A DNA stretch of 64,000 nt from an uncultured Desulfobacteraceae bacterium (GCA_913060875.1 CAJXSL010000021.1:15017-79016); one strand, 5' to 3'. Shown: positions 2,190 to 26,460, counted from the first letter of the stretch. Notes: generated from the letters alone by a model not told the origin. Numbers and translations are program-made.

Positions 2190-2858
2190 TTCCCGCAGGG
2201 AATCGGTTAATTGGGGAATTGGGTAACTGGGGGATTCGTTGATTGGTCAATTGGTTATTGCCGATTTCAGTAATTGAGAAACTAGGGGGCTGAGAAACTC
2301 CCTTAACTGCAGAAACTGGGGAAATAGGTAATTGGTCAACTGGGAGATTCTTTGAATCGTTTTAAGAAGAAAACCGGTTCAACAAAGGATTTTAGAGATC
2401 TTGAAGCTTATCAGCGTGCTGTTATTGTTCGTCAGGATATATGGGCGTTTTGTAAAAATCTTCCAACCGATGAGAAGTACCGATTGGTCGATCAGATGGT
2501 TAGGGCGTCTCGGTCGGCTACAGCTTGTATTGCCGAGGGGTATGGCCGATACCATTATTAGGAAACAATTCAATTTTGCAGACAAGCACGCGGTTCTCTT
2601 TACGAACTCCTGGACCATATCGAAACAGCCCTGGAATGTAAATCTATCAAGGAAGAACAGGCTGAAGTGTCTTTGGATAAAGTCAGCACGACCATCAAAA
2701 TACTTAACGGCTATATCGGCTACCTGCGGAAGCGAAAAGAAGACAACTCCTGAAATATCGTGCTATCGGTACTATTGATCCCATTGACTAACGATAAATT
2801 GGACTGTTTAGCCGATTACCCAATCGACGATTCGACTATTTACCCAATCAACTAATCC
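2190..2858 (+). repeat. IVS-like inverted-array element, octamer-arm subfamily (arms about 2207-2345 and about 2780-2855 around ORF 2352-2753)
   Basis: The left arm has about 8-nt periodicity: taattggg gaattggg taactggg .. tgattggt caattggt .. gtaattgg tcaactgg. The right arm carries the reverse-complement units: cccattga .. cccaatcg .. cccaatca. The small palindrome attccc-gca-gggaat at 2189-2203 abuts the xrt stop codon. Confidence 0.65.
2352..2753 (+). pseudogene. four-helix-bundle protein (23S rRNA-IVS protein family) interrupted by an in-frame TAG at 2559-2561
   Basis: 69 codons (..RLVDQMVRASRSATACIAEGYGRYHY) run into TAG. The same frame continues as ETIQFCRQARGSLYELLDHIETALECK..GYIGYLRKRKEDNS to TGA at 2751-2753. 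Both halves together give a full-length family member. Confidence 0.75.
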
Positions 2859-4496
2859 ATGATCTATCTCTCCACATTACTCTTATCTCTGTTCATCACC
2901 ATCTCGCTGGTGCCGCCGCTCAAGTCCCTGGCGATTCGTTTCCAGGCGGTGGACATACCCAACGAGCGCAAGGTGCATACCCGGCCGATCCCCAAGATCG
3001 GTGGGCTGGCCATGGCCTGCGGGGCCCTGATCCCAATTTTGCTGTGGGCAGCCATGAACGGGTTTGGCCATGCCCTGCTGGCCGGCTCGGCGGTGATCGT
3101 GATATTCGGCTTTCTGGATGATCTTTGGGACCTGCCCTACAAGGCCAAATTCCTGGCCCAACTGGCCGCGGCCCTGATCGTTGTCCAGTTCGGTCAATTG
3201 GAATTATGCTGCCTGGGCAACCTGGCCCCGGAAGGATTTCTGCTGCCCACTGCCCTGGCCCTCCCCCTGACCGTTTTCGTCATCGTGGGGGTGACCAACG
3301 CCATCAATCTGTCCGATGGCCTGGACGGCCTGGCCGGCGGCATCACCCTGATGACCTTTATCTGCATCGGCTACCTGGCCTACCAGGGCGGGCACTTTTT
3401 CACCCTGACCGTCTCTGTGGCTGCCATCGGCGCCATTTTCGGCTTCCTGCGCTTCAATACCTTCCCGGCCGTCATTTTCATGGGGGATACCGGCAGCCAG
3501 CTTCTGGGTTTCCTGGCCATCTGCCTTTCCATCCACATCACCCAGGGCAACCAGCCCCTGAGTCCCCTGCTCCCCCTGATCATCCTGGGATTCCCGATCC
3601 TGGACACCCTTACCGTTATGACCGAACGGATCATGAAAGGGGCCTCCCCGTTCAAGCCGGACAAGAACCATTTCCATCACAAATTGATGCGCCTGGGCCT
3701 CTTCCACACCGAGGCGGTTTTCACCATTTATCTCCTCCAGTCGTTCCTAATTCTGTCGGCCATTGTTTTCCGGTTCTATTCAGAATGGTTTCTACTCTTT
3801 TTCTACGCAATTTTTTCCAGTGTAATTATCAGTACATTTACCATCCTCGATCATCGTCATTGCCAGCTCCCGCGAACTGATTTTATCGACAAGATGATCA
3901 AGGGACGCCTCAAGGTCCTCAAGGAACGCAACATCATCATCAAGGTGAGCTTCCGCTGCGTGGAGTTCGGCATGCCCCTGCTGCTGGCCTCCACCTGCCT
4001 GCTGAGCCGCAACACTCCGGGTTATTTTGCGGTGGTAGCAGGAGGACTCAGCCTTTTGCTGATCGCAATCTTTTTCCTTCGCCGATCCCTGTCCGCCACG
4101 GCCATCCGCATCGGCCTCTACCTGGTCATCCCCTTTCTGGTCTACATCTCCGAAGCCGGGGCGGCCGACTTGCCCCTCAATATCCACCGTTCCTATTCCA
4201 TAGCCTTCGGCGTGATGGTGATGTTCGTGATCCTGACCCTCAAGTTCACCCGCCGCCGCAAGGGGTTCAAGACCACCCCCATGGATTTCCTGGTGCTCTT
4301 CATCGCCCTGGTGGTTCCCAATATCACCGGCACCCAGATCGCCTCCCTCAACATGGGCATGATCGCCGCCAAGATCATCGTCCTGCTCTTCGGCTATGAG
4401 GTGCTGATCGGCGAGTTGCGGGGGGAACTCAAGCGGCAGGTTATTTTCGCTGCTGCCGCCATGGCGATCATTCCGATAAAATTTTTTATTGGATAA
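2859..4496 (+). CDS. MraY/WecA-family (GT4) undecaprenyl-phosphate sugar-1-phosphate transferase with an extended C-terminal membrane domain
   Basis: 545-aa polytopic protein. It carries the motifs NERKVHTRPIPKIGG, VTNAINLSDGLDGLAGG and FMGDTGSQLLGF, typical of the WecA/MraY family. Confidence 0.85.
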   Translation: MIYLSTLLLSLFITISLVPPLKSLAIRFQAVDIPNERKVHTRPIPKIGGLAMACGALIPILLWAAMNGFGHALLAGSAVIVIFGFLDDLWDLPYKAKFLAQLAAALIVVQFGQLELCCLGNLAPEGFLLPTALALPLTVFVIVGVTNAINLSDGLDGLAGGITLMTFICIGYLAYQGGHFFTLTVSVAAIGAIFGFLRFNTFPAVIFMGDTGSQLLGFLAICLSIHITQGNQPLSPLLPLIILGFPILDTLTVMTERIMKGASPFKPDKNHFHHKLMRLGLFHTEAVFTIYLLQSFLILSAIVFRFYSEWFLLFFYAIFSSVIISTFTILDHRHCQLPRTDFIDKMIKGRLKVLKERNIIIKVSFRCVEFGMPLLLASTCLLSRNTPGYFAVVAGGLSLLLIAIFFLRRSLSATAIRIGLYLVIPFLVYISEAGAADLPLNIHRSYSIAFGVMVMFVILTLKFTRRRKGFKTTPMDFLVLFIALVVPNITGTQIASLNMGMIAAKIIVLLFGYEVLIGELRGELKRQVIFAAAAMAIIPIKFFIG

Positions 4497-4860
4497 AACA
4501 TATTCACCACAGAGACACGGTTGGCAAATAAGCCCCAAGCTCAAAGCTCAAAGCTCAAAGCTCAAAGCTCAAAGCTCAAAGCTCAAAGCTCAAAGCTCAA
4601 AGCTCAAAGCTCAAAGAAAAAAAACCGTGCGTAGGAACAGACGTCAAGCAAAAAATTTGATTTATAGAGGAAAAAATAGGAAGTGATGCCTTCGGCAGAG
4701 CTCGAAGCTCAAAGTTGAACCCGCCACCCTGAAAATTCTTTATTCTTTTTTTGTAGTTCCTTGGCGCTTTGAGCTCAGCCTTTAAGCTTGTTTTACCAGC
4801 TTTTCCCCTTTGAGCTTGACCCTTTGTGTTGTTTTTCCCAGGAGCGTTTCGCTCCTTTTC
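4497..4860 (+). repeat. IVS-like CAAAGCT-arm element, ORF-less copy
   Basis: Components: leader tattcaccacagagaca; (CAAAGCT)n at 4536-4616 (about 11-12 units); conserved module at 4617-4680 (ccgtgcgtaggaacagacgtcaagcaaaaaatttgatttatagagg); complementary arm at 4757-4826 (gcgctttgagctcagcctttaagcttg..cctttgagcttgaccctttg); GGAGCG-ttt-CGCTCC hairpin at 4842-4856. Confidence 0.8.
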
Positions 4861-7354: not shown

Positions 7355-8045
7355 ACGCATATTCACCACAGAGACAGGAGCGCTTTGCGCTCCGTTGAAA
7401 GTTGGAGACAACGGCAAAGCTCAAAGCTCAAAGCTCAAAGCTCAAAGCTCAAAGCTCAAAGCTCAAAGCTCAAAGCTCAAACAAAAAACAGTGCGTAGCA
7501 ACAAACGTCAAGTAAAAATTTTACTTATGAGAGGTAAAAAATAGATTCACGGATCAATAACAAAATGTTTGGATATGAAGAGTTGAAAGTCTGGGATCGA
7601 GCGGTGTCATTTGCCGTAATGGTTATCGAGGCATCGGAGAGCATTGACACCGGCCGGCAGCATTATCGCCTGATAGAACAAATCGAAGCTTCTTCGACCA
7701 GTATTGCGATGAACATAGCCGAAGGTAAAGGTCGATTTTCCAAAAAAGAATTCAAACATTTTTGCTACATTGCCAGGGGCAGTCTGTACGAAACCGCAAC
7801 TCTGCTGGAAATTTTCCACCGTAAAGCCTGGATACCCACGAATACCTATAATGAACTGAAATCCGAAGCCATAGAGATCGCCGCCATGATCAAAGGGCTT
7901 ATCAATTCTCTTCAAACGGAATAAGCTTGTTTGTTTTCCTTTGCGCTTTCATCTTTGAGCTTCTTTTATCGCAGTTCCTTTCAGCTTTGAGCTTTCAGCT
8001 TCGAGCTCTGCTGGAGGCAGCACTTTCAGCTTGACCCTTTTTTTC
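7355..8045 (+). repeat. IVS-like CAAAGCT-arm element, full-length copy with an intact ORF
   Basis: Components: leader tattcaccacagagaca plus GGAGCG-cttt-GCGCTCC hairpin; (CAAAGCT)n at 7415-7480; conserved module at 7482-7540; ORF at 7565-7924; complementary degenerate array at 7937-8040 (ctttgagctt..cctttcagctttgagctttcagcttcgagc..). Confidence 0.8.
7565..7924 (+). CDS. four-helix-bundle protein (23S rRNA intervening-sequence protein family)
   Basis: 119-aa intact ORF MFGYEELKVWDRAVSF..IEQIEASSTSIAMNIAEGKGRFSKKEFKHFCYIARGSLYET..IKGLINSLQTE. This is the family signature. It has close paralogs at 13529-13888 and 26015-26381. Confidence 0.85.
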   Translation: MFGYEELKVWDRAVSFAVMVIEASESIDTGRQHYRLIEQIEASSTSIAMNIAEGKGRFSKKEFKHFCYIARGSLYETATLLEIFHRKAWIPTNTYNELKSEAIEIAAMIKGLINSLQTE

Positions 8046-10142: not shown

Positions 10143-10530
10143 CGCCTTGCGGCAGTGCTCGAAGCGGCTGCCTGCGGCAAAGCTCAAAGCTCAAAGCTCA
10201 AAGCTCAAAGCTCAAAGCTCAAAGCTCAAAGAAAAAAACCGTGCGTAGGAACAAACGTCAATATAAAAATTGATTTTGAGGGGGGAAATAAGCCTTAAAG
10301 CTGAAAGAAAATGCGGTTTGTTCTTTTTACGTCAAGATATGGAAGGAACTTATTCTACCAATCGCAGTGCCCCAGCCCTGCCAAAGGCAGCCGATTGACG
10401 CTTCATGCTCTGCCGTAGCCCGCGTGTTTTTAGCTTGGCTTTTTTGCGATTGCTTTGAGCTTTCAGCTTGACGCTTTGAACTCTGCCGCAGGCAGCCTCT
10501 TTCAGCTTTGAGCTTGGCGCTTTTCCGAAG
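10143..10530 (+). repeat. IVS-like CAAAGCT-arm element, ORF-less copy
   Basis: It begins directly after the stop codon. Components: CTGCC-tgc-GGCA hairpins; (CAAAGCT)n at 10178-10231; conserved module at 10232-10290; shared remnant acttattctaccaatcgca; complementary arm at 10451-10523. Confidence 0.8.
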
Positions 10531-10610
10531 GCCCTAACGAACATAACGATCTAAACTATCGTAACGACCAAAACTAACATAGCTATCCAAACTATTTATC
10601 GGGAATCTCC

Positions 10611-12215
10611 ATGGAACAGGAAACCATCAATCTGAGCGATTTTACCGACATCATCCGCCGGCGGCGCTGGAGTTTCATCCTCCCGGCCGGTGCCATCTTC
10701 CTCCTGGCGGTCCTGGTGGCCCTGGCCCTGTCGCCGGTATACAAGTCCACGGCCACCATCCTGATCGAGGAGCAGGAAATCCCGTCGGATTTCGTCATCA
10801 CCACGGTCACCAGCTACGTGGAGCAGCGCCTCCAGAGCATCAACCAGCGCATCATGAGCTCCACCCGCCTGCTGGAGATCATCGACCGCTTCAACCTCTA
10901 TGCCGACGAGCGCGACAAGCGCACCACCGAAGAAATCGTCGAAAAGATGCGGGAAGACGTGCTGCTGGAACCCATCAGCACCGAAGTCATGGACAAGCGC
11001 ACGGGGCGGGCCACCATGGCCACCATCGCCTTTTCCCTGTCCTACGAAGCCAAGGAGACCCCGGCCAAAGTCCAGAAGGTGGCCTCCCAGTTGACCTCCC
11101 TCTTCCTGGAGGAAAACCTCAAGGTGCGCGAGCGCCAGACCTCGGAGACCTCCCAGTTCCTGCGGGATGAGAGTGCGCGCGTCAAAGCCCAGATGGACCA
11201 GATCGAGGGCGAAATCGCAGTTTTCAAACAGGCCCACATCAACGAACTGCCCGAGATGCTGCAGCTCAACATGCAGGAACTGAGCAATATCGATCGCAAC
11301 ATGGAGCGTTTGCAGGAGAACCTGCGCACCCTCAATCAGCGGGAAGGCTACCTCCAGGCTGAACTTTCCACCACCTCCCCTAAATGGCACAAAAGCTGGG
11401 TTGCTGAAAAAGACGAGGACGTCAAACGCCTGGAGTTCCTTGAAGTCCAGTTGATTTCCCTGAAGACCCGCTATTCCGACGAATACCCGGACGTAGTCAA
11501 AACCGTCCAAGAAATCGACACCATCAAGCGACGTCTGGACGAAGCTGGGGTGGACTACTCCCGCCAAAACGGCAAGGACCACGATACACCGGAAAACCCG
11601 GCCTATATCAGTCTGTCGGCACAACTGAGCGGGGTGCAGTCGGAAATCGAGACCATCAACCGCCAGATCGCCAGTTTCGAGGGCACCGCCCTCCGATACA
11701 AGCAGCGCATTGCCGCCACCCCGGCCGTGGAGGAAACCTACAACGCCCTGCTCTCGCGCCAGGCCAACACCCGCCTGAAATACAACGACCTGCTCCAGAA
11801 AACCATGGAAGCCGAAGTGGCCCAGGGCCTGGAAAAAGACCAGAAGGGCGAGCGCTTCACCCTCATCGACCCGGCCCGCCTGCCGGAAAAACCCTTCAAG
11901 CCCAACCGGCTGGCCATCGTGCTGATCGGTATTGTTTTGGGCATGGGCGCAGGGGTGGGCTGGGCCGCCCTGCGGGAGTTCACGGATGATGCGGTCCACA
12001 ATGCGGAGGCCCTTACCCGCAGCACCGGCTTCCCGGTACTCTCGGGCATTCCGGCCATCATAACCCCGTCCGAAACCGAACACCGGCAGCGCATGCAAAA
12101 AGTCAAAATCATCGCTGCCGTGGCCGCCGTACCGTTGGCCATCGTCATCTTCCATTTTTTTATCATGGACCTGGATATCTTCTGGGCCAAGCTGATGCGA
12201 CGGTTGGGGTTATAG
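10611..12215 (+). CDS. polysaccharide chain-length determinant protein (Wzz/EpsF-like, PEP-CTERM locus type)
   Basis: 534 aa. It has an N-terminal TM helix, a Wzz motif region (..SPVYKSTATILIEEQ..), a long coiled-coil periplasmic domain and a C-terminal TM helix. Confidence 0.85.
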   Translation: MEQETINLSDFTDIIRRRRWSFILPAGAIFLLAVLVALALSPVYKSTATILIEEQEIPSDFVITTVTSYVEQRLQSINQRIMSSTRLLEIIDRFNLYADERDKRTTEEIVEKMREDVLLEPISTEVMDKRTGRATMATIAFSLSYEAKETPAKVQKVASQLTSLFLEENLKVRERQTSETSQFLRDESARVKAQMDQIEGEIAVFKQAHINELPEMLQLNMQELSNIDRNMERLQENLRTLNQREGYLQAELSTTSPKWHKSWVAEKDEDVKRLEFLEVQLISLKTRYSDEYPDVVKTVQEIDTIKRRLDEAGVDYSRQNGKDHDTPENPAYISLSAQLSGVQSEIETINRQIASFEGTALRYKQRIAATPAVEETYNALLSRQANTRLKYNDLLQKTMEAEVAQGLEKDQKGERFTLIDPARLPEKPFKPNRLAIVLIGIVLGMGAGVGWAALREFTDDAVHNAEALTRSTGFPVLSGIPAIITPSETEHRQRMQKVKIIAAVAAVPLAIVIFHFFIMDLDIFWAKLMRRLGL

Positions 12216-12242: not shown

Positions 12243-12480
12243 AAGCTGAAAGGGACTGCGAAAAGATCGAAATATAAAATGGGAAAATAAGAAAAAGCTC
12301 AAAGCGGCAACCTGTAGGTTTTATCTATTTTCCTAATTCACTATTTTCCAATTTCTTGTTTTTGCCCTGTCTTTAAGCTTGGCGCTGCTTTTAACGCAGT
12401 TCCTTTGAGCTTTCAGCTTTGAGCTTCGAGCCCTGCCGCAGGCAGCCCTTTGAGCTTTCAGCTTGACGCTTTGAGCTTCA
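12243..12480 (+). repeat. CAAAGCT-family element, mainly the complementary (GAGCTTT) arm
   Basis: 12373-12478 reads cttggcgctgcttttaacgcagttcctttgagctttcagctttgagcttcgagccctgccgcaggcagccctttgagctttcagcttgacgctttgagc. Short sense units (aagctgaaagg, aaagctcaaagcgg) lie at 12243-12325. Confidence 0.75.
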
Positions 12481-12577
12481 TTATTGGCCTAAGGCCCCAA
12501 CTATCAAACTAACGAAACTATCAAGACTATCTTAACTGTCTACCATATTAACTCTTTAAACGATTATAAGGTACCCC

Positions 12578-13339: not shown

Positions 13340-14030
13340 GGGCCTGAGCTCAAAGCTCAAAGCTCAAAGCTCAAAGCTCAAAGCTCAAAGAAAACCGTGC
13401 GTAGGAACAGACGTCAAGCAAAAAATTTGATTTATAGAGGGAAATAAGCCTGAAGCTGAAAGCTGAAAGCTGAAAGGAAAACCTAAAACAAAGGGCAAAA
13501 TCAAATAAATTCGAAAATCAATAATCAAGCGTTTGGATATGAAGATCTTAAAGTTTGGGATCGAGCGGTGTCATTTGCCGTAATGGTTATCGACGCAACA
13601 GAATGTATTGACACCAGCCGGCAGCATTATCGTCTGATCGAGCAAATCGAAGCCTCCTCGACAAGTGTTGCCATGAACATTGCAGAAGGCAAAGGGCGTT
13701 TCTCCCTCAAGGAATTCAAACATTTTTGCTACATTTCCAGGGGCAGCCTGTACGAGACCATGACGCTACTGGAAATATTTCATCGTAAAGACTGGATATC
13801 TTCGGCGAAATATGACGAGTTAAAAGCGGAAGCCATTGAGATCGCCGCAATGATCAAAGGGCTTATCAATTCTCTTCGAACGGAATGAGCTTGTTTGTTT
13901 TCCTTCGCGCTTTACGATTTTAGGAAGTTCCTTTGAGCTTTCAGCTTGACGCTTTGAGCTTGTTTTTTCTCCCTTTGAGCTTTCAGCTTGGCGCTTCTTT
14001 TCATCGCTGTTCCTTTGAGCTTATTTCCCG
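13340..14030 (+). repeat. IVS-like CAAAGCT-arm element, full-length copy
   Basis: Components: (CAAAGCT)n at 13346-13390; conserved module at 13391-13445; (GAAAGCT)3 at 13449-13477; ORF; complementary arrays at 13929-14023. Confidence 0.8.
13568..13888 (+). CDS. four-helix-bundle protein paralog; ancestral ATG replaced (GCG at 13529-13531)
   Basis: Homology to the 7565 copy starts at 13532 (FGYEDLKVWDRAV..), but the codon aligned to its ATG is GCG. The first usable in-frame starts are GTG 13568 and ATG 13583. It is possibly a decaying copy. Confidence 0.6.
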   Translation: MSFAVMVIDATECIDTSRQHYRLIEQIEASSTSVAMNIAEGKGRFSLKEFKHFCYISRGSLYETMTLLEIFHRKDWISSAKYDELKAEAIEIAAMIKGLINSLRTE

Positions 14031-14755: not shown

Positions 14756-14818
14756 ACTGCCTTCGGCAGAGCTCAAAGCGGCTGCCTTTGGCAGAGCTCA
14801 AAGCTGAAAGCTCAAAGG
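14756..14818 (+). repeat. CAAAGCT-family half element (sense units only)
   Basis: The segment is ctgccttcggcagagctcaaagcggctgcctttggcagagctcaaagctgaaagctcaaagg. It is followed by aaaagcagaaaagagaaattaggaaaataag. Confidence 0.7.
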
Positions 14819-14925
14819 AAAAGCAGAAAAGAGAAATTAGGAAAATAAGTGTGCGACATGTAAATGGTTTGGTTTTCCATCCCAGTTACCTATTTCGCTA
14901 TTTTCTATTTGACTGAATTTCGACC

Positions 14926-15984: not shown

Positions 15985-16283
15985 AAAAGCTCAAAGCTCA
16001 AAGCTCAAAGCTCAAAGCTCAAAGCTCAAAGCTCAAAGCTCAAAGCTCAAAGAAAAAACCAGCACAGAGAAACAAACGTCAAGCAAAAAATTTGTTTTAG
16101 AGAGAAAAAAAACGATTCGCGGATCAATAACCAAGTATTTGGGCATGAAGAGTTGAAAAGCACTTATTCTACCAATCGCAATGGCCCGGAAAAAAATCAG
16201 TCACCGGCCATATCTATTGCTTCGAGCCTTGCTGTAGGCAGTCCCTTTCAGCTTTCAGCTTTGAGCTCTGCCGAAGGCAGCCG
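15985..16283 (+). repeat. IVS-like CAAAGCT-arm element with an internally deleted ORF
   Basis: Components: (CAAAGCT)n at 15985-16052; conserved module; ORF leader and first codons (gattcgcggatcaataaccaagtatttgggcatgaagagttgaaa), then a jump to acttattctaccaatcgca; complementary arm at 16221-16283. Confidence 0.8.
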
Positions 16284-17149: not shown

Positions 17150-17290
17150 CAGGGTTTTGGGCCTTGAGCCTGTTGGAGGTCTTGGGCCTTCGGCCGTTGG
17201 AGGTTTTGGGCCTTCGGCCGTTTGAGGTATATGGTTTGAGGATTTTTTGCCTTCACCCTCCAACCTCAGACCTCCAACAGCTTGCGCAGC
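17150..17290 (+). repeat. short hairpin element with TTGGAGGT/TTGGGCC units and complementary CCTCCAAC units
   Basis: Left units: tgttggaggtcttgggccttcggccgttggaggttttgggccttcggccgtttgaggt. Complementary units: caccctccaacctcagacctccaac. Confidence 0.7.
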
Positions 17291-17329
17291 AAACCTCTTT
17301 GAGCTTTTCCCTATTTCCATATTTTCTGA

Positions 17330-17436
17330 TTTCTCCTTTCTGCTTTTCCTTTGAGCTTTCAGCTTTGAGCTCTGCCGCAGGCAGCCGCTTTGAGCTTTCA
17401 GCTTTCAGCTTCGAGCTCTGCCGCAGGCAAGAGCGC
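17330..17436 (+). repeat. CAAAGCT-family element, complementary (GAGCTTT) arm only
   Basis: The segment is ctgcttttcctttgagctttcagctttgagctctgccgcaggcagccgctttgagctttcagctttcagcttcgagctctgccgcaggca. Confidence 0.75.
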
Positions 17437-18389: not shown

Positions 18390-18775
18390 AAGTATTCACC
18401 ACAGGGACACAGAGGGGGACTATAAGCGCCAAGCTCAAAGCTCAAAGCTCCAAGCTCAAAGCTCCAAGCTCAAAGCTCCAAGCTCAAAGCTCAAAGCTCC
18501 AAGCTCCAAGCTCAAAGAAAAAATAGTGCGTATAAACAAACGTCAAGCAAAAAATTTGACTTTGAGATGAAAAAAATCGATTTGCGGATCAATAACCAAG
18601 TATTTGGCTATGAGGAATCTCCAGGTTTTCGGGTTCAGCTTTGAGCTTGAAGCTTTTGTTGCCGCAGTTCCTTTGAGCTTTGAGCTTGGCGCTTTGAGCT
18701 CTGCCAAAGGCAGTCCTTTCAGCTTGGCGCTGCTTTTCTCCGTGCCTCGAGCGCAGCGGGTGGTTAAAACTATAG
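18390..18775 (+). repeat. IVS-like CAAAGCT/CCAAGCT-arm element with an internally deleted ORF
   Basis: Components: leader gtattcaccacagggaca; mixed (CAAAGCT/CCAAGCT)n at 18430-18517; conserved module; ORF leader plus about 5 codons (gatttgcggatcaataaccaagtatttggctatgagg), then the complementary arm at 18634-18735. Confidence 0.8.
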
Positions 18776-25834: not shown

Positions 25835-26460
25835 GCAGCGCCAAGCTCAAAGCGTCAAGCTGAAAGGACTGCCTTTGGCAGAGCTCAAAGCGGCAAGCTC
25901 AAAGCTGAAAGCCCAAAGCTCAAAGGGACGGCAATAACAAGAAGCGTGAAGCCCAAAGCTGAAAGCTCAAAGGAACTTCCTAAAATCGTAAAGCGCGAAG
26001 GAAAACAAACAAGCTCATTCCGTTCGAAGAGAATTGATAAGCCCTTTGATCATGGCGGCGATCTCTATGGCTTCGGATTTCAGTTCCGAATAGGTATTCG
26101 TGGGTATCCAGGCTTTACGATGAAAAATTTCCAGCAGAGTGGTGGTTTCGTATAGGCTGCCCCTGGCAATGCAGCAAAAATGTTTGAATTCTTTTCTGGA
26201 AAATCGACCTTTGCCTTCGGCTATGTTCATCGCAACACTTGTCGAGGAGGCTTCGATTTGCTCGATCAAACGATAATGCTGCCGGCCCGGTGTCAATGCT
26301 CTCCGATGCGTCGATAACCATGACGGCAAATGAGACCGCACGATCCCATACTTTCAACTCTTCATATCCAAACTGTTGCATAGCTCTACCCTAGTCGCTG
26401 ATTGCTCCAAGGTCTTAATGGTTTTCCTTTCAGCTTTCAGCTTTGAGCTTTGAGGCTTCA
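25835..26460 (-). repeat. IVS-like CAAAGCT-arm element, inverted orientation, carrying a frameshifted ORF
   Basis: 25835-26010 is the mirror of the right arm of the 13340-14030 copy (..ggaacttcctaaaatcgtaaagcgcgaaggaaaacaaacaagc). 26425-26455 is the mirror of the left arm (cctttcagctttcagctttgagctttgagg). Confidence 0.8.
26015..26381 (-). pseudogene. four-helix-bundle protein paralog with a +1 frameshift
   Basis: MQQFGYEELKVWDRAVSFAVMVIDASESIDTG (frame A) and RQHYRLIEQIEASSTSVAMNIAEGKGRF..INSLRTE (frame B) are separated by one extra base. The plus-strand ccc at 26286-26288 corresponds to cc at the aligned position of the intact 7565 copy. Confidence 0.8.

Follow-up and report, generated by a model that had tools for sequence, protein, structure and literature searches.

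A nonsense-interrupted four-helix-bundle gene within inverted tandem-repeat arms at an exosortase locus of an uncultured Desulfobacteraceae bacterium

The insert between xrtD and the glycosyltransferase gene

The window analysed here, a stretch of 64,000 nucleotides from an uncultured Desulfobacteraceae bacterium (GCA_913060875.1 CAJXSL010000021.1:15017-79016), carries at positions 2190-2858 an insert in which a four-helix-bundle open reading frame (ORF), interrupted by a single TAG codon, is flanked by two arrays of short tandem repeats in inverted orientation. The insert is 669 bp long and lies exactly between the stop codon (TGA, 2187-2189, + strand) of a gene encoding an XrtD-type exosortase/EpsI fusion (537-2189; Pfam and NCBIfam matches) and the ATG (2859-2861, + strand) of a gene encoding a WecA-like family-4 glycosyltransferase (GT4; 2859-4496; Pfam PF00953). 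Its borders were defined by comparison with 42 related junctions gathered via the EpsI domain of XrtD. In one of these, L100, the junction is empty: the xrtD stop codon runs straight into the ATG (...TAA followed directly by ATGATCTTTCTATCCAC), and the start of the window GT4 gene aligns with ATGATCTTTCTATCCAC; the window insert is therefore exactly 2190-2858. A second junction (L103) is nearly empty, and in most relatives the glycosyltransferase gene begins directly after xrtD.

Directly after the xrtD stop codon, the insert opens with a small hairpin, TTCCC-GCA-GGGAA (2190-2202, + strand; sequence reading and predicted fold). The TTCCC/GGGAA stem is retained at the orthologous locus, L001, with an altered loop (GCT). 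No sense-strand promoter or terminator consensus was found within the insert.

The four-helix-bundle gene and its nonsense codon

The ORF occupies 2352-2756 on the + strand, with a TTG start and a TGA stop at 2754-2756. The initial annotation was correct about an ORF with an in-frame TAG (2559-2561, + strand) but had ended it at 2753. The translated frame matched PF05635 (23S_rRNA_IVP) over the full profile (1-106 of 106; E = 2.5e-27; 95.6 bits against a cut-off of 33.8) and TIGR02436, 'four helix bundle protein' (E = 1.6e-25; 89.4 bits against a cut-off of 24), and both matches span the TAG. The PF05635 family includes S23p, the protein of 23S-rRNA intervening sequences (IVSs), and Avd, the accessory protein of diversity-generating retroelements (DGRs). 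Its nearest relative, P0001, shares 86% identity and was found in several metagenome contigs at the orthologous site, in the order exosortase, four-helix-bundle gene and Glycos_transf_4 gene.

An AlphaFold2 model of P0001 (pLDDT 86.6) consists of four long helices forming a four-helix bundle. Foldseek searches with this model returned the pentameric protein XCC0516 (2GSC; E = 9e-6, TM 0.9 on the target) and BT_0352 (2RLD; E = 9e-5), then the DGR Avd structures 8UB7 and 4DWL, so that the predicted fold is an up-down four-helix bundle like 2GSC and 2RLD. PHROGs likewise gave a match to 'Avd protein of DGR' (E = 1.4e-4). PADLOC found no defence family. The idea of a HEPN-like nuclease was also considered: a literature search yielded nothing for it, and the Foldseek matches were limited to 2GSC, 2RLD, Avd and generic helical bundles. 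A DGR remnant was rejected, the neighbours being an exosortase and a glycosyltransferase with no adjacent reverse transcriptase (RT) or template/variable repeat (TR/VR) pair. No long direct repeat of TR/VR type was found in 2100-2950; the remaining window was not screened for reverse transcriptase.

At the position of the window's TAG, P0001 carries CAG (Gln), and this residue, Q70, is invariant across 16 aligned homologues. Between the window gene and its orthologue dN/dS was 0.29 (dS 0.22); purifying selection thus acted on the gene through most of the time that separates the two. The window copy has lost its intact reading frame by one C-to-T nonsense mutation, CAG to TAG, and so is a recent pseudogene of the Avd/S23p family, as the initial annotation had proposed; the TAG may also be a sequencing error. 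The annotation's second suggestion, a read-through site, found no support. Although both halves of the ORF are otherwise intact, the Pfam match crosses the TAG and the lost Gln is one that a supE-type suppressor could restore, it is highly improbable that the codon is decoded (by read-through, a suppressor or pyrrolysine) in a functional gene, given that TAG closes 8 of the 45 long ORFs in the window, that the three window tRNAs are ordinary with no suppressor among them, that the orthologous CAG is a single transition away, and that other copies bear unrelated lesions (a frameshift at 26018-26390 in the window; a TGA in L054). A reassignment of TAG was likewise rejected on the ordinary TAG stops and ordinary tRNAs of the window.

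The second of these lesions lies in a relative from the 9-nt family (see below) in a Cytophagia metagenome-assembled genome (MAG; L054, 2504-2890), where the in-frame TGA occupies a conserved Cys position (..MRF*RHARG..); the window gene is therefore not alone in having been pseudogenised. Within the window itself there are four four-helix-bundle ORFs, two intact, one with the nonsense codon and one frameshifted, besides several further copies without an ORF.

The repeat arms of the window copy

The left arm (2198-2349, + strand) comprises 19 degenerate 8-nt units that stay in phase (GKNAAYTG, a rotation of TTGGKNAA), recovered by autocorrelation, by Tandem Repeats Finder (period 8/16 at 2198-2257) and as direct-repeat family D1. 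The units keep a single register throughout, with no indel (GTTAATTG GGGAATTG GGTAACTG GGGGATTC GTTGATTG GTCAATTG ...). They are best preserved at 2206-2261 and 2318-2341, and the arm terminates in GGGAG, a Shine-Dalgarno-like box. Allowing at most one mismatch, the left arm contains five matches to TTGGTTAA and none to its complement. The right arm (2757-2858, + strand) consists of about 12 units complementary to the left-arm unit (CCCATTGA .. TTACCCAA TCGACGAT ..), evident from lags 8 and 24, direct-repeat families D2 and D5 and inverted pairs I1-I3 and I5; its last position is 1 nt ahead of the GT4 start codon. The insert thus presents two opposite-strand tandem arrays of a unit in the 7-9-nt range within a co-directional gene junction.

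The arrays, noticed at first by inspection, stand well above background. Against dinucleotide-preserving shuffles, the upstream flank (2190-2351) had a lag-8 autocorrelation of 0.48 (z = 6.6; lag 16, z = 6.5); the downstream flank (2754-2858) showed the same 8-nt signal in weaker form (lag 8, z = 3.5; lag 24, z = 3.9), and nothing comparable was found by autocorrelation within the ORF itself. The complementarity noted between the flanks was also confirmed, the best inverted pair (2218-2257 with 2809-2848) matching at 75% over 40 nt. Folding gave a mixed result: in predictions for 2186-2862 the outer arms pair in both the minimum-free-energy and centroid structures, but the z-score of the whole region is weak. 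We therefore adopted a test of arm against arm in its place, by which the RNA duplex had an energy of -61.4 kcal/mol (z about -3.1, p about 0.007, 300 shuffles). By the predicted fold and the duplex z-score, the termini of the insert are complementary and enclose the ORF in a stem-loop, as those of an IVS do.

Rfam held no family for the arms, returning only chance microRNA-like matches to simple repeats, and identified no rRNA within window positions 1-30000; the insert is flanked by xrtD and the GT4 gene and is not located in an rRNA helix. Reading the G-rich left arm as a G-quadruplex or telomere-like sequence was rejected since, judged by eye, this fits the window and L001 only and not the other loci.

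Inverted arrays around related genes in several phyla

A scan of the GTDB representatives, one genome per species, produced 80 loci encoding relatives of the window protein (subfamily 2) at 45-66% identity, of which 77 were scored. The hosts were Desulfobacterota, Bacteroidota, Ignavibacteria, Cloacimonadota, Planctomycetota and a gutless-worm symbiont; the survey covered this one subfamily, and mock sites were taken from the same loci. The same best lag (7, 8 or 9 nt) was found in both flanks at 42 of the 77 loci, compared with 3 of 78 mock sites, the latter being mostly coding sequence (Fisher p = 3e-13). The median arm-duplex z was -2.1 at real and +0.1 at mock sites (Mann-Whitney p = 7e-13), with values of -3 or lower at 29 real loci and at 1 mock site. 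Inverted short-period arrays around a four-helix-bundle ORF are a general design across bacterial phyla, and the conservation of architecture that had been inferred from the window alone holds well outside it. Examples read by eye include (CGAATTAA)x20 in L007, TGGTCGAG / CCACTCGA in L019, (TAATCGT)x7 / TAACGAT in L050 and (GTTAGTTGA)x10 / CATACTTAA in L078.

The surveyed genes are embedded among their neighbours in a consistent way. Both neighbours could be called at 68 loci; they were both on the strand of the four-helix-bundle gene in 57 and both on the opposite strand in 2. The gap on each side of the gene has a median of 67 nt and is filled by the arrays. Taken with the lack of promoter and terminator consensus in the window insert, these observations place the cassettes in sense orientation inside operons. 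The sense-strand duplex was more stable than its antisense equivalent in 54 of 77 loci (p = 0.0015; controls, 44 of 78, p = 0.17), a modest point in favour of a role for the arms as RNA.

One locus has a different layout. In L035 (1150-1990, a Bacteroidales MAG), duplicated blocks precede the gene, each containing TTATTGG ..., followed by (AACGAAT)x10; the downstream array is oriented like the upstream one, and the whole looks nested or tandem rather than a simple inverted pair.

Sequence and structure in the arms

The suggestion that the arms follow the lineage of the element was borne out. Of 41 loci, 38 shared their period with the nearest protein neighbour (permutation mean 14.7, maximum 28). 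Period tracks the protein tree across host phyla, and the window genome carries 7-nt and 8-nt families side by side.

It had further been argued that the structure, and not a sequence motif, is what matters. This was contradicted by a conserved, polar unit. In the 8-nt clade, matches to TTGGTTAA with at most one mismatch numbered 35 forward and 2 reverse in the upstream arm, and 6 forward and 35 reverse in the downstream arm; the corresponding control counts were 2, 3, 1 and 0. The upstream arm was skewed towards G over C in 43 of 45 loci. Because this TTGGTTAA-like unit and its polarity are conserved, arm sequence matters as well as structure within the 8-nt clade. The lack of a G.U bias among arm mismatches and the weak arm pairing of the L001 orthologue (both detailed below) contradict the original claim as well. 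In L001, where the ORF is intact, the right arm is almost identical to that of the window and the left arm has been rebuilt as a 24-nt (3x8) repeat.

Different occupants of one junction

Among the gathered xrtD/glycosyltransferase junctions, several hold other inserts at the same place. The other family of the window, with a 7-nt unit (AGCTCAA), is present intact in L096, with its ORF deleted in L094 and without an ORF in L095. L112 contains a third type of four-helix-bundle gene with TTGATTGG/CCAATCCA arms, and L099 (1990-2560) an antisense four-helix-bundle gene with GTTAGGTT / AAACCTAA arms. Two more occupants have no ORF: a 590-nt AT-rich nest of CCACAGATT / AATCTGCGG inverted arrays in L102 (3130-3700) and an 80-nt mini hairpin of 8-nt units in L108 (3135-3205). 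The presence of different cassette lineages and ORF-less remnants at one junction indicates that it has been invaded repeatedly, in the manner of mobile or hitch-hiking elements.

Interpretation

The best explanation of the window insert, to which we give an even chance of being right, is that it is a decayed copy of an operon-embedded, co-transcribed, IVS-like cassette with pairing arms. It takes in the observed anatomy and protein family, the precise insertion, the occurrence across phyla, the joint inheritance of protein, period and unit, the sense orientation and the death of this copy. Having no promoter or terminator of its own, the cassette would be read through within the operon transcript. 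The arm unit is non-palindromic, so an arm cannot fold on itself; the two arms would instead pair with each other, in any register, and loop out the ORF in the manner of an rRNA IVS stem. IVS stems are cut by RNase III (PMC4990558), and the long imperfect duplex of the arms would be a likely substrate of this enzyme, a platform for the encoded Avd-like pentamer, or both. The duplex would also bring the xrtD stop codon beside the downstream ATG, as the two abut in the empty L100 junction. The cassette family as a whole would be a selfish, mobile or hitch-hiking insert that leaves hairpin remnants lacking the ORF.

Several observations weigh against this explanation. The fold of the whole window region had a z-score of only -1.5, and arm pairing in L001 was non-significant at the same value (z -1.5). 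Arm lengths are often very unequal, with 20 and 6 units, for example, in L007. Mismatches between the arms were G.U-compatible in 41 cases, against 42 for the antisense equivalent, and the majority (143) were transversions; with no G.U excess, nothing indicates compensatory maintenance of an RNA stem. The contrast with mock sites is tempered by the coding character of most of those sites, and a comparison of the insert borders with the empty L100 junction revealed no target-site duplication. Finally, we infer the transcription of the cassette, the pairing of its arms in vivo, their cleavage and binding and the mode of spread.

The strongest alternative, though an unlikely one, is that the arms act as DNA: they would be transposon-like, multi-site inverted ends (cf. 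Tn7, Mu), synapsed by a trans-acting recombinase or by a four-helix-bundle oligomer that moves the cassette, with RNA pairing a by-product. Conservation of the unit motif and its polarity rather than of pairing speaks for this reading, as do the covariation of protein clade and period, the repeated invasion of one junction and the existence of ORF-less derivatives resembling miniature transposable elements with inverted repeats (MITEs). Paired octanucleotide arrays at operon junctions of Geobacter metallireducens, moreover, often adjoin IS110-family elements (PMC2700814). The window insert has inverted arms; no transposase or recombinase lies in or beside the cassette, and the site shows no duplication relative to L100; no catalytic activity is known for PF05635 proteins; the 7-9-bp spacing is far below that of known transposase end sites; and a model based on DNA only does not require the strong bias towards sense orientation.

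Somewhat less probable again is that the arrays are single-stranded RNA operators for a ring oligomer, like those of TRAP or HutP. A pentamer would wrap about five tandem units of one arm, with 7-9 nt per subunit, and thereby control translation of its own or the downstream gene, the complementary arm serving as antagonist. The relatives 2GSC and 4DWL do form pentamers (PMC10053308), the polar motif is conserved in arrays of at least five units, the period tracks the protein clade, and the arms are suitably placed, the left overlapping the ribosome-binding site of the cassette and the right abutting the next ATG. Arrays persist, however, where the ORF has died or been deleted; free-standing members of the family are not known to bind RNA with any specificity; and the match between the period and the arc of a subunit is our own estimate.

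That the arrays are functionless, slippage-prone simple repeats in tolerated intergenic DNA, with the gene as an unrelated hitch-hiker, is already disfavoured and very improbable: perfect arrays such as (CAAAGCT)n, at 100% identity, do mark recent slippage, and arm lengths are unequal and change fast between orthologues, but the concordance of period between flanks, the inversion, the unit and polarity shared across phyla and the linkage to one protein family are hard to explain in this way.

Comparison with known systems

A search of the literature found no paper connecting PF05635 genes with flanking tandem-repeat arms, and an IVS-type cassette outside rRNA with clade-specific tandem-unit arms is apparently undescribed. 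Co-transcribed hairpin MITEs, such as Correia/NEMIS of Neisseria and ERIC of enterobacteria, are inserted at operon junctions and form folded structures in the mRNA that RNase III or RNase E processes. In function they are analogous to the ORF-less cassette derivatives, but they have unique inverted repeats and target-site duplications, with neither tandem-unit arms nor a four-helix-bundle gene.

The closest parallel to the complete cassette is the 23S rRNA IVS with an S23p ORF, known from Leptospira and Coxiella (PMC4990558): the two share the PF05635 family and an ORF of about 400 nt within complementary, stem-forming termini, both are embedded in and co-oriented with the host transcript, and the IVS is regarded as selfish. 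The IVS, however, sits in an rRNA helix and the cassette between protein genes of an exosortase/polysaccharide operon. The IVS has a unique 28-bp inverted repeat, whereas the arms of the cassette are 100-150 nt long and composed of 7-9-nt tandem units, for which processing by RNase III is our inference. The DGR Avd protein (4DWL, 8UB7) has a homologous fold, and in the DGR RNA it binds a stem-loop beside a long-range duplex formed by the sequences flanking the template (bioRxiv 10.1101/2023.10.23.563531), a layout paralleled in the cassette by the small hairpin and the pairing arms around a central segment. Identity to Avd is only about 10%, however, and DGRs have an RT and template/variable repeats, which the cassette, with xrtD and a glycosyltransferase gene for neighbours, lacks at its locus.

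Arrays without the gene have been described more than once. The paired 'global regulator binding sites' (classes 1-3) of G. metallireducens are opposite-strand pairs of tandem hepta- or octanucleotides at variable distance, located in co-directional junctions (nifD-nifK, proB-proA, trpB2), and have the same architecture as ORF-less copies of the cassette (Aklujkar et al. 2009, PMC2700814). Their units differ (GTTGCTYN, TCTCCGTS, MTYCTGA), and their authors took them for IHF/HU sites, reporting no association with four-helix-bundle genes (PMC2700814). Short tandemly repeated repetitive (STRR) sequences of cyanobacteria and the TAACTGA repeats of Beggiatoaceae, Cyanobacteria and Bacteroidetes are likewise intergenic 7-nt arrays unable to self-fold (MacGregor 2015, PMC4679880). 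They often end a few nt before the downstream start and are missing from the same junction in close relatives, but only direct repeats were described, with no inverted partner or enclosed gene noted (PMC4679880). Genes of the 23S_rRNA_IVP family have also been seen wedged between cas genes (PMC3936711).

In Bacteroidota, Desulfobacterota and Cyanobacteria, the genes for four-helix-bundle ('S23 ribosomal'/IVS) proteins rank with the most common small genes that lack an explanation, and intergenic heptamer and octamer arrays have been a puzzle since the 1990s; the present locus and survey tie both into one recurring cassette design, with a conserved, polar, clade-specific unit, precise insertion between operon genes and frequent decay to ORF-less hairpins. 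For annotation, this design accounts for many 'interrupted' four-helix-bundle genes and repeat-rich operon junctions. It also yields testable hypotheses on the role of free-standing Avd relatives, the origin of IVSs and the means by which inserts avoid breaking host operons. A bolder proposal, which we regard as a long shot, is that PF05635 genes with inverted arrays are the autonomous form of widespread, undescribed mobile cassettes targeting stop/start junctions in operons. Their pentamer would recognise the clade-specific unit, and copying might proceed via an RNA intermediate with a recruited host reverse transcriptase, as Avd recruits the DGR reverse transcriptase (bRT). STRR, TAACTGA arrays and the Geobacter 'global regulator sites' would then be ORF-less remnants, and the rRNA IVS one special case.

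Other cassettes and repeats in the window

A second and larger cassette family, with a 7-nt unit, occupies nearly all gaps in the exosortase/polysaccharide locus from about 4.5 to 26.5 kb, with elements at 4537-4830, 7415-8030, 10178-10520, 12370-12480, 13347-14020, 14757-14836, 15986-16280, 17300-17430, 18431-18730 and 25837-26451. The left arms are perfect (CAAAGCT)n and the right arms degenerate CTTTGAG/CTTTCAG units. Intact four-helix-bundle ORFs of this family are located at 7565-7924 and about 13529-13888; a look-up of the protein encoded by the former found no exact match on record. A third gene (26018-26390, - strand) is frameshifted, with its N-terminal 32 codons in one frame and the rest in another. 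The remaining copies are ORF-deleted or single-armed and retain the conserved spacer AAAAAACCGTGCGTAGGAACAGACGTCAAGC together with the first codons of the gene.

Two further motifs accompany these elements. The box TATTCACCACAGRGACA lies just 5' of three 7-nt left arrays (4501-4517, 7360-7376 and 18393-18409; three matches, none expected), and the 7-nt elements therefore reach beyond their arrays on the left. The hairpin motif CTGCY-NNN-RGCAG has 11 copies in the window, compared with 0.2 expected, always among 7-nt arrays (1467, 8008, 10378, 10483, 12433, 14757, 14782, 16268, 17372, 18701 and 25869). Its stem is constant and its triloops are variable (TGC, GGA, AAA, GCA, TTC, TTT, GAA).

Repeat sequence also occurs within xrtD itself, where AGCTCAA units and a CTGCCTGCGGCAG hairpin at 1448-1510 encode about 21 extra residues (QLPAAERQAQSVKLKATSEKQ). 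These residues belong to the linker that joins the exosortase domain to EpsI, and the L001 orthologue lacks them; a fragment of a repeat arm has apparently been domesticated in frame.

Arrays of other kinds were found at two places. C/A-rich arrays of 9- and 8-nt units (TAACGAACA ..., AACTATCA ...) at 10535-10600 and 12499-12570 extend to the start codons at 10611 and 12578, beside 7-nt right arms, and resemble solitary right arms of another family. At 17153-17290, a 24-nt unit, GGTTTTGGGCCTTCGGCCGTTGGA, occurs three times, every copy with its own GGCC-TTCG-GGCC hairpin, and a complementary stretch of CCTCCAAC type follows; this region is a further ORF-less inverted-array element.

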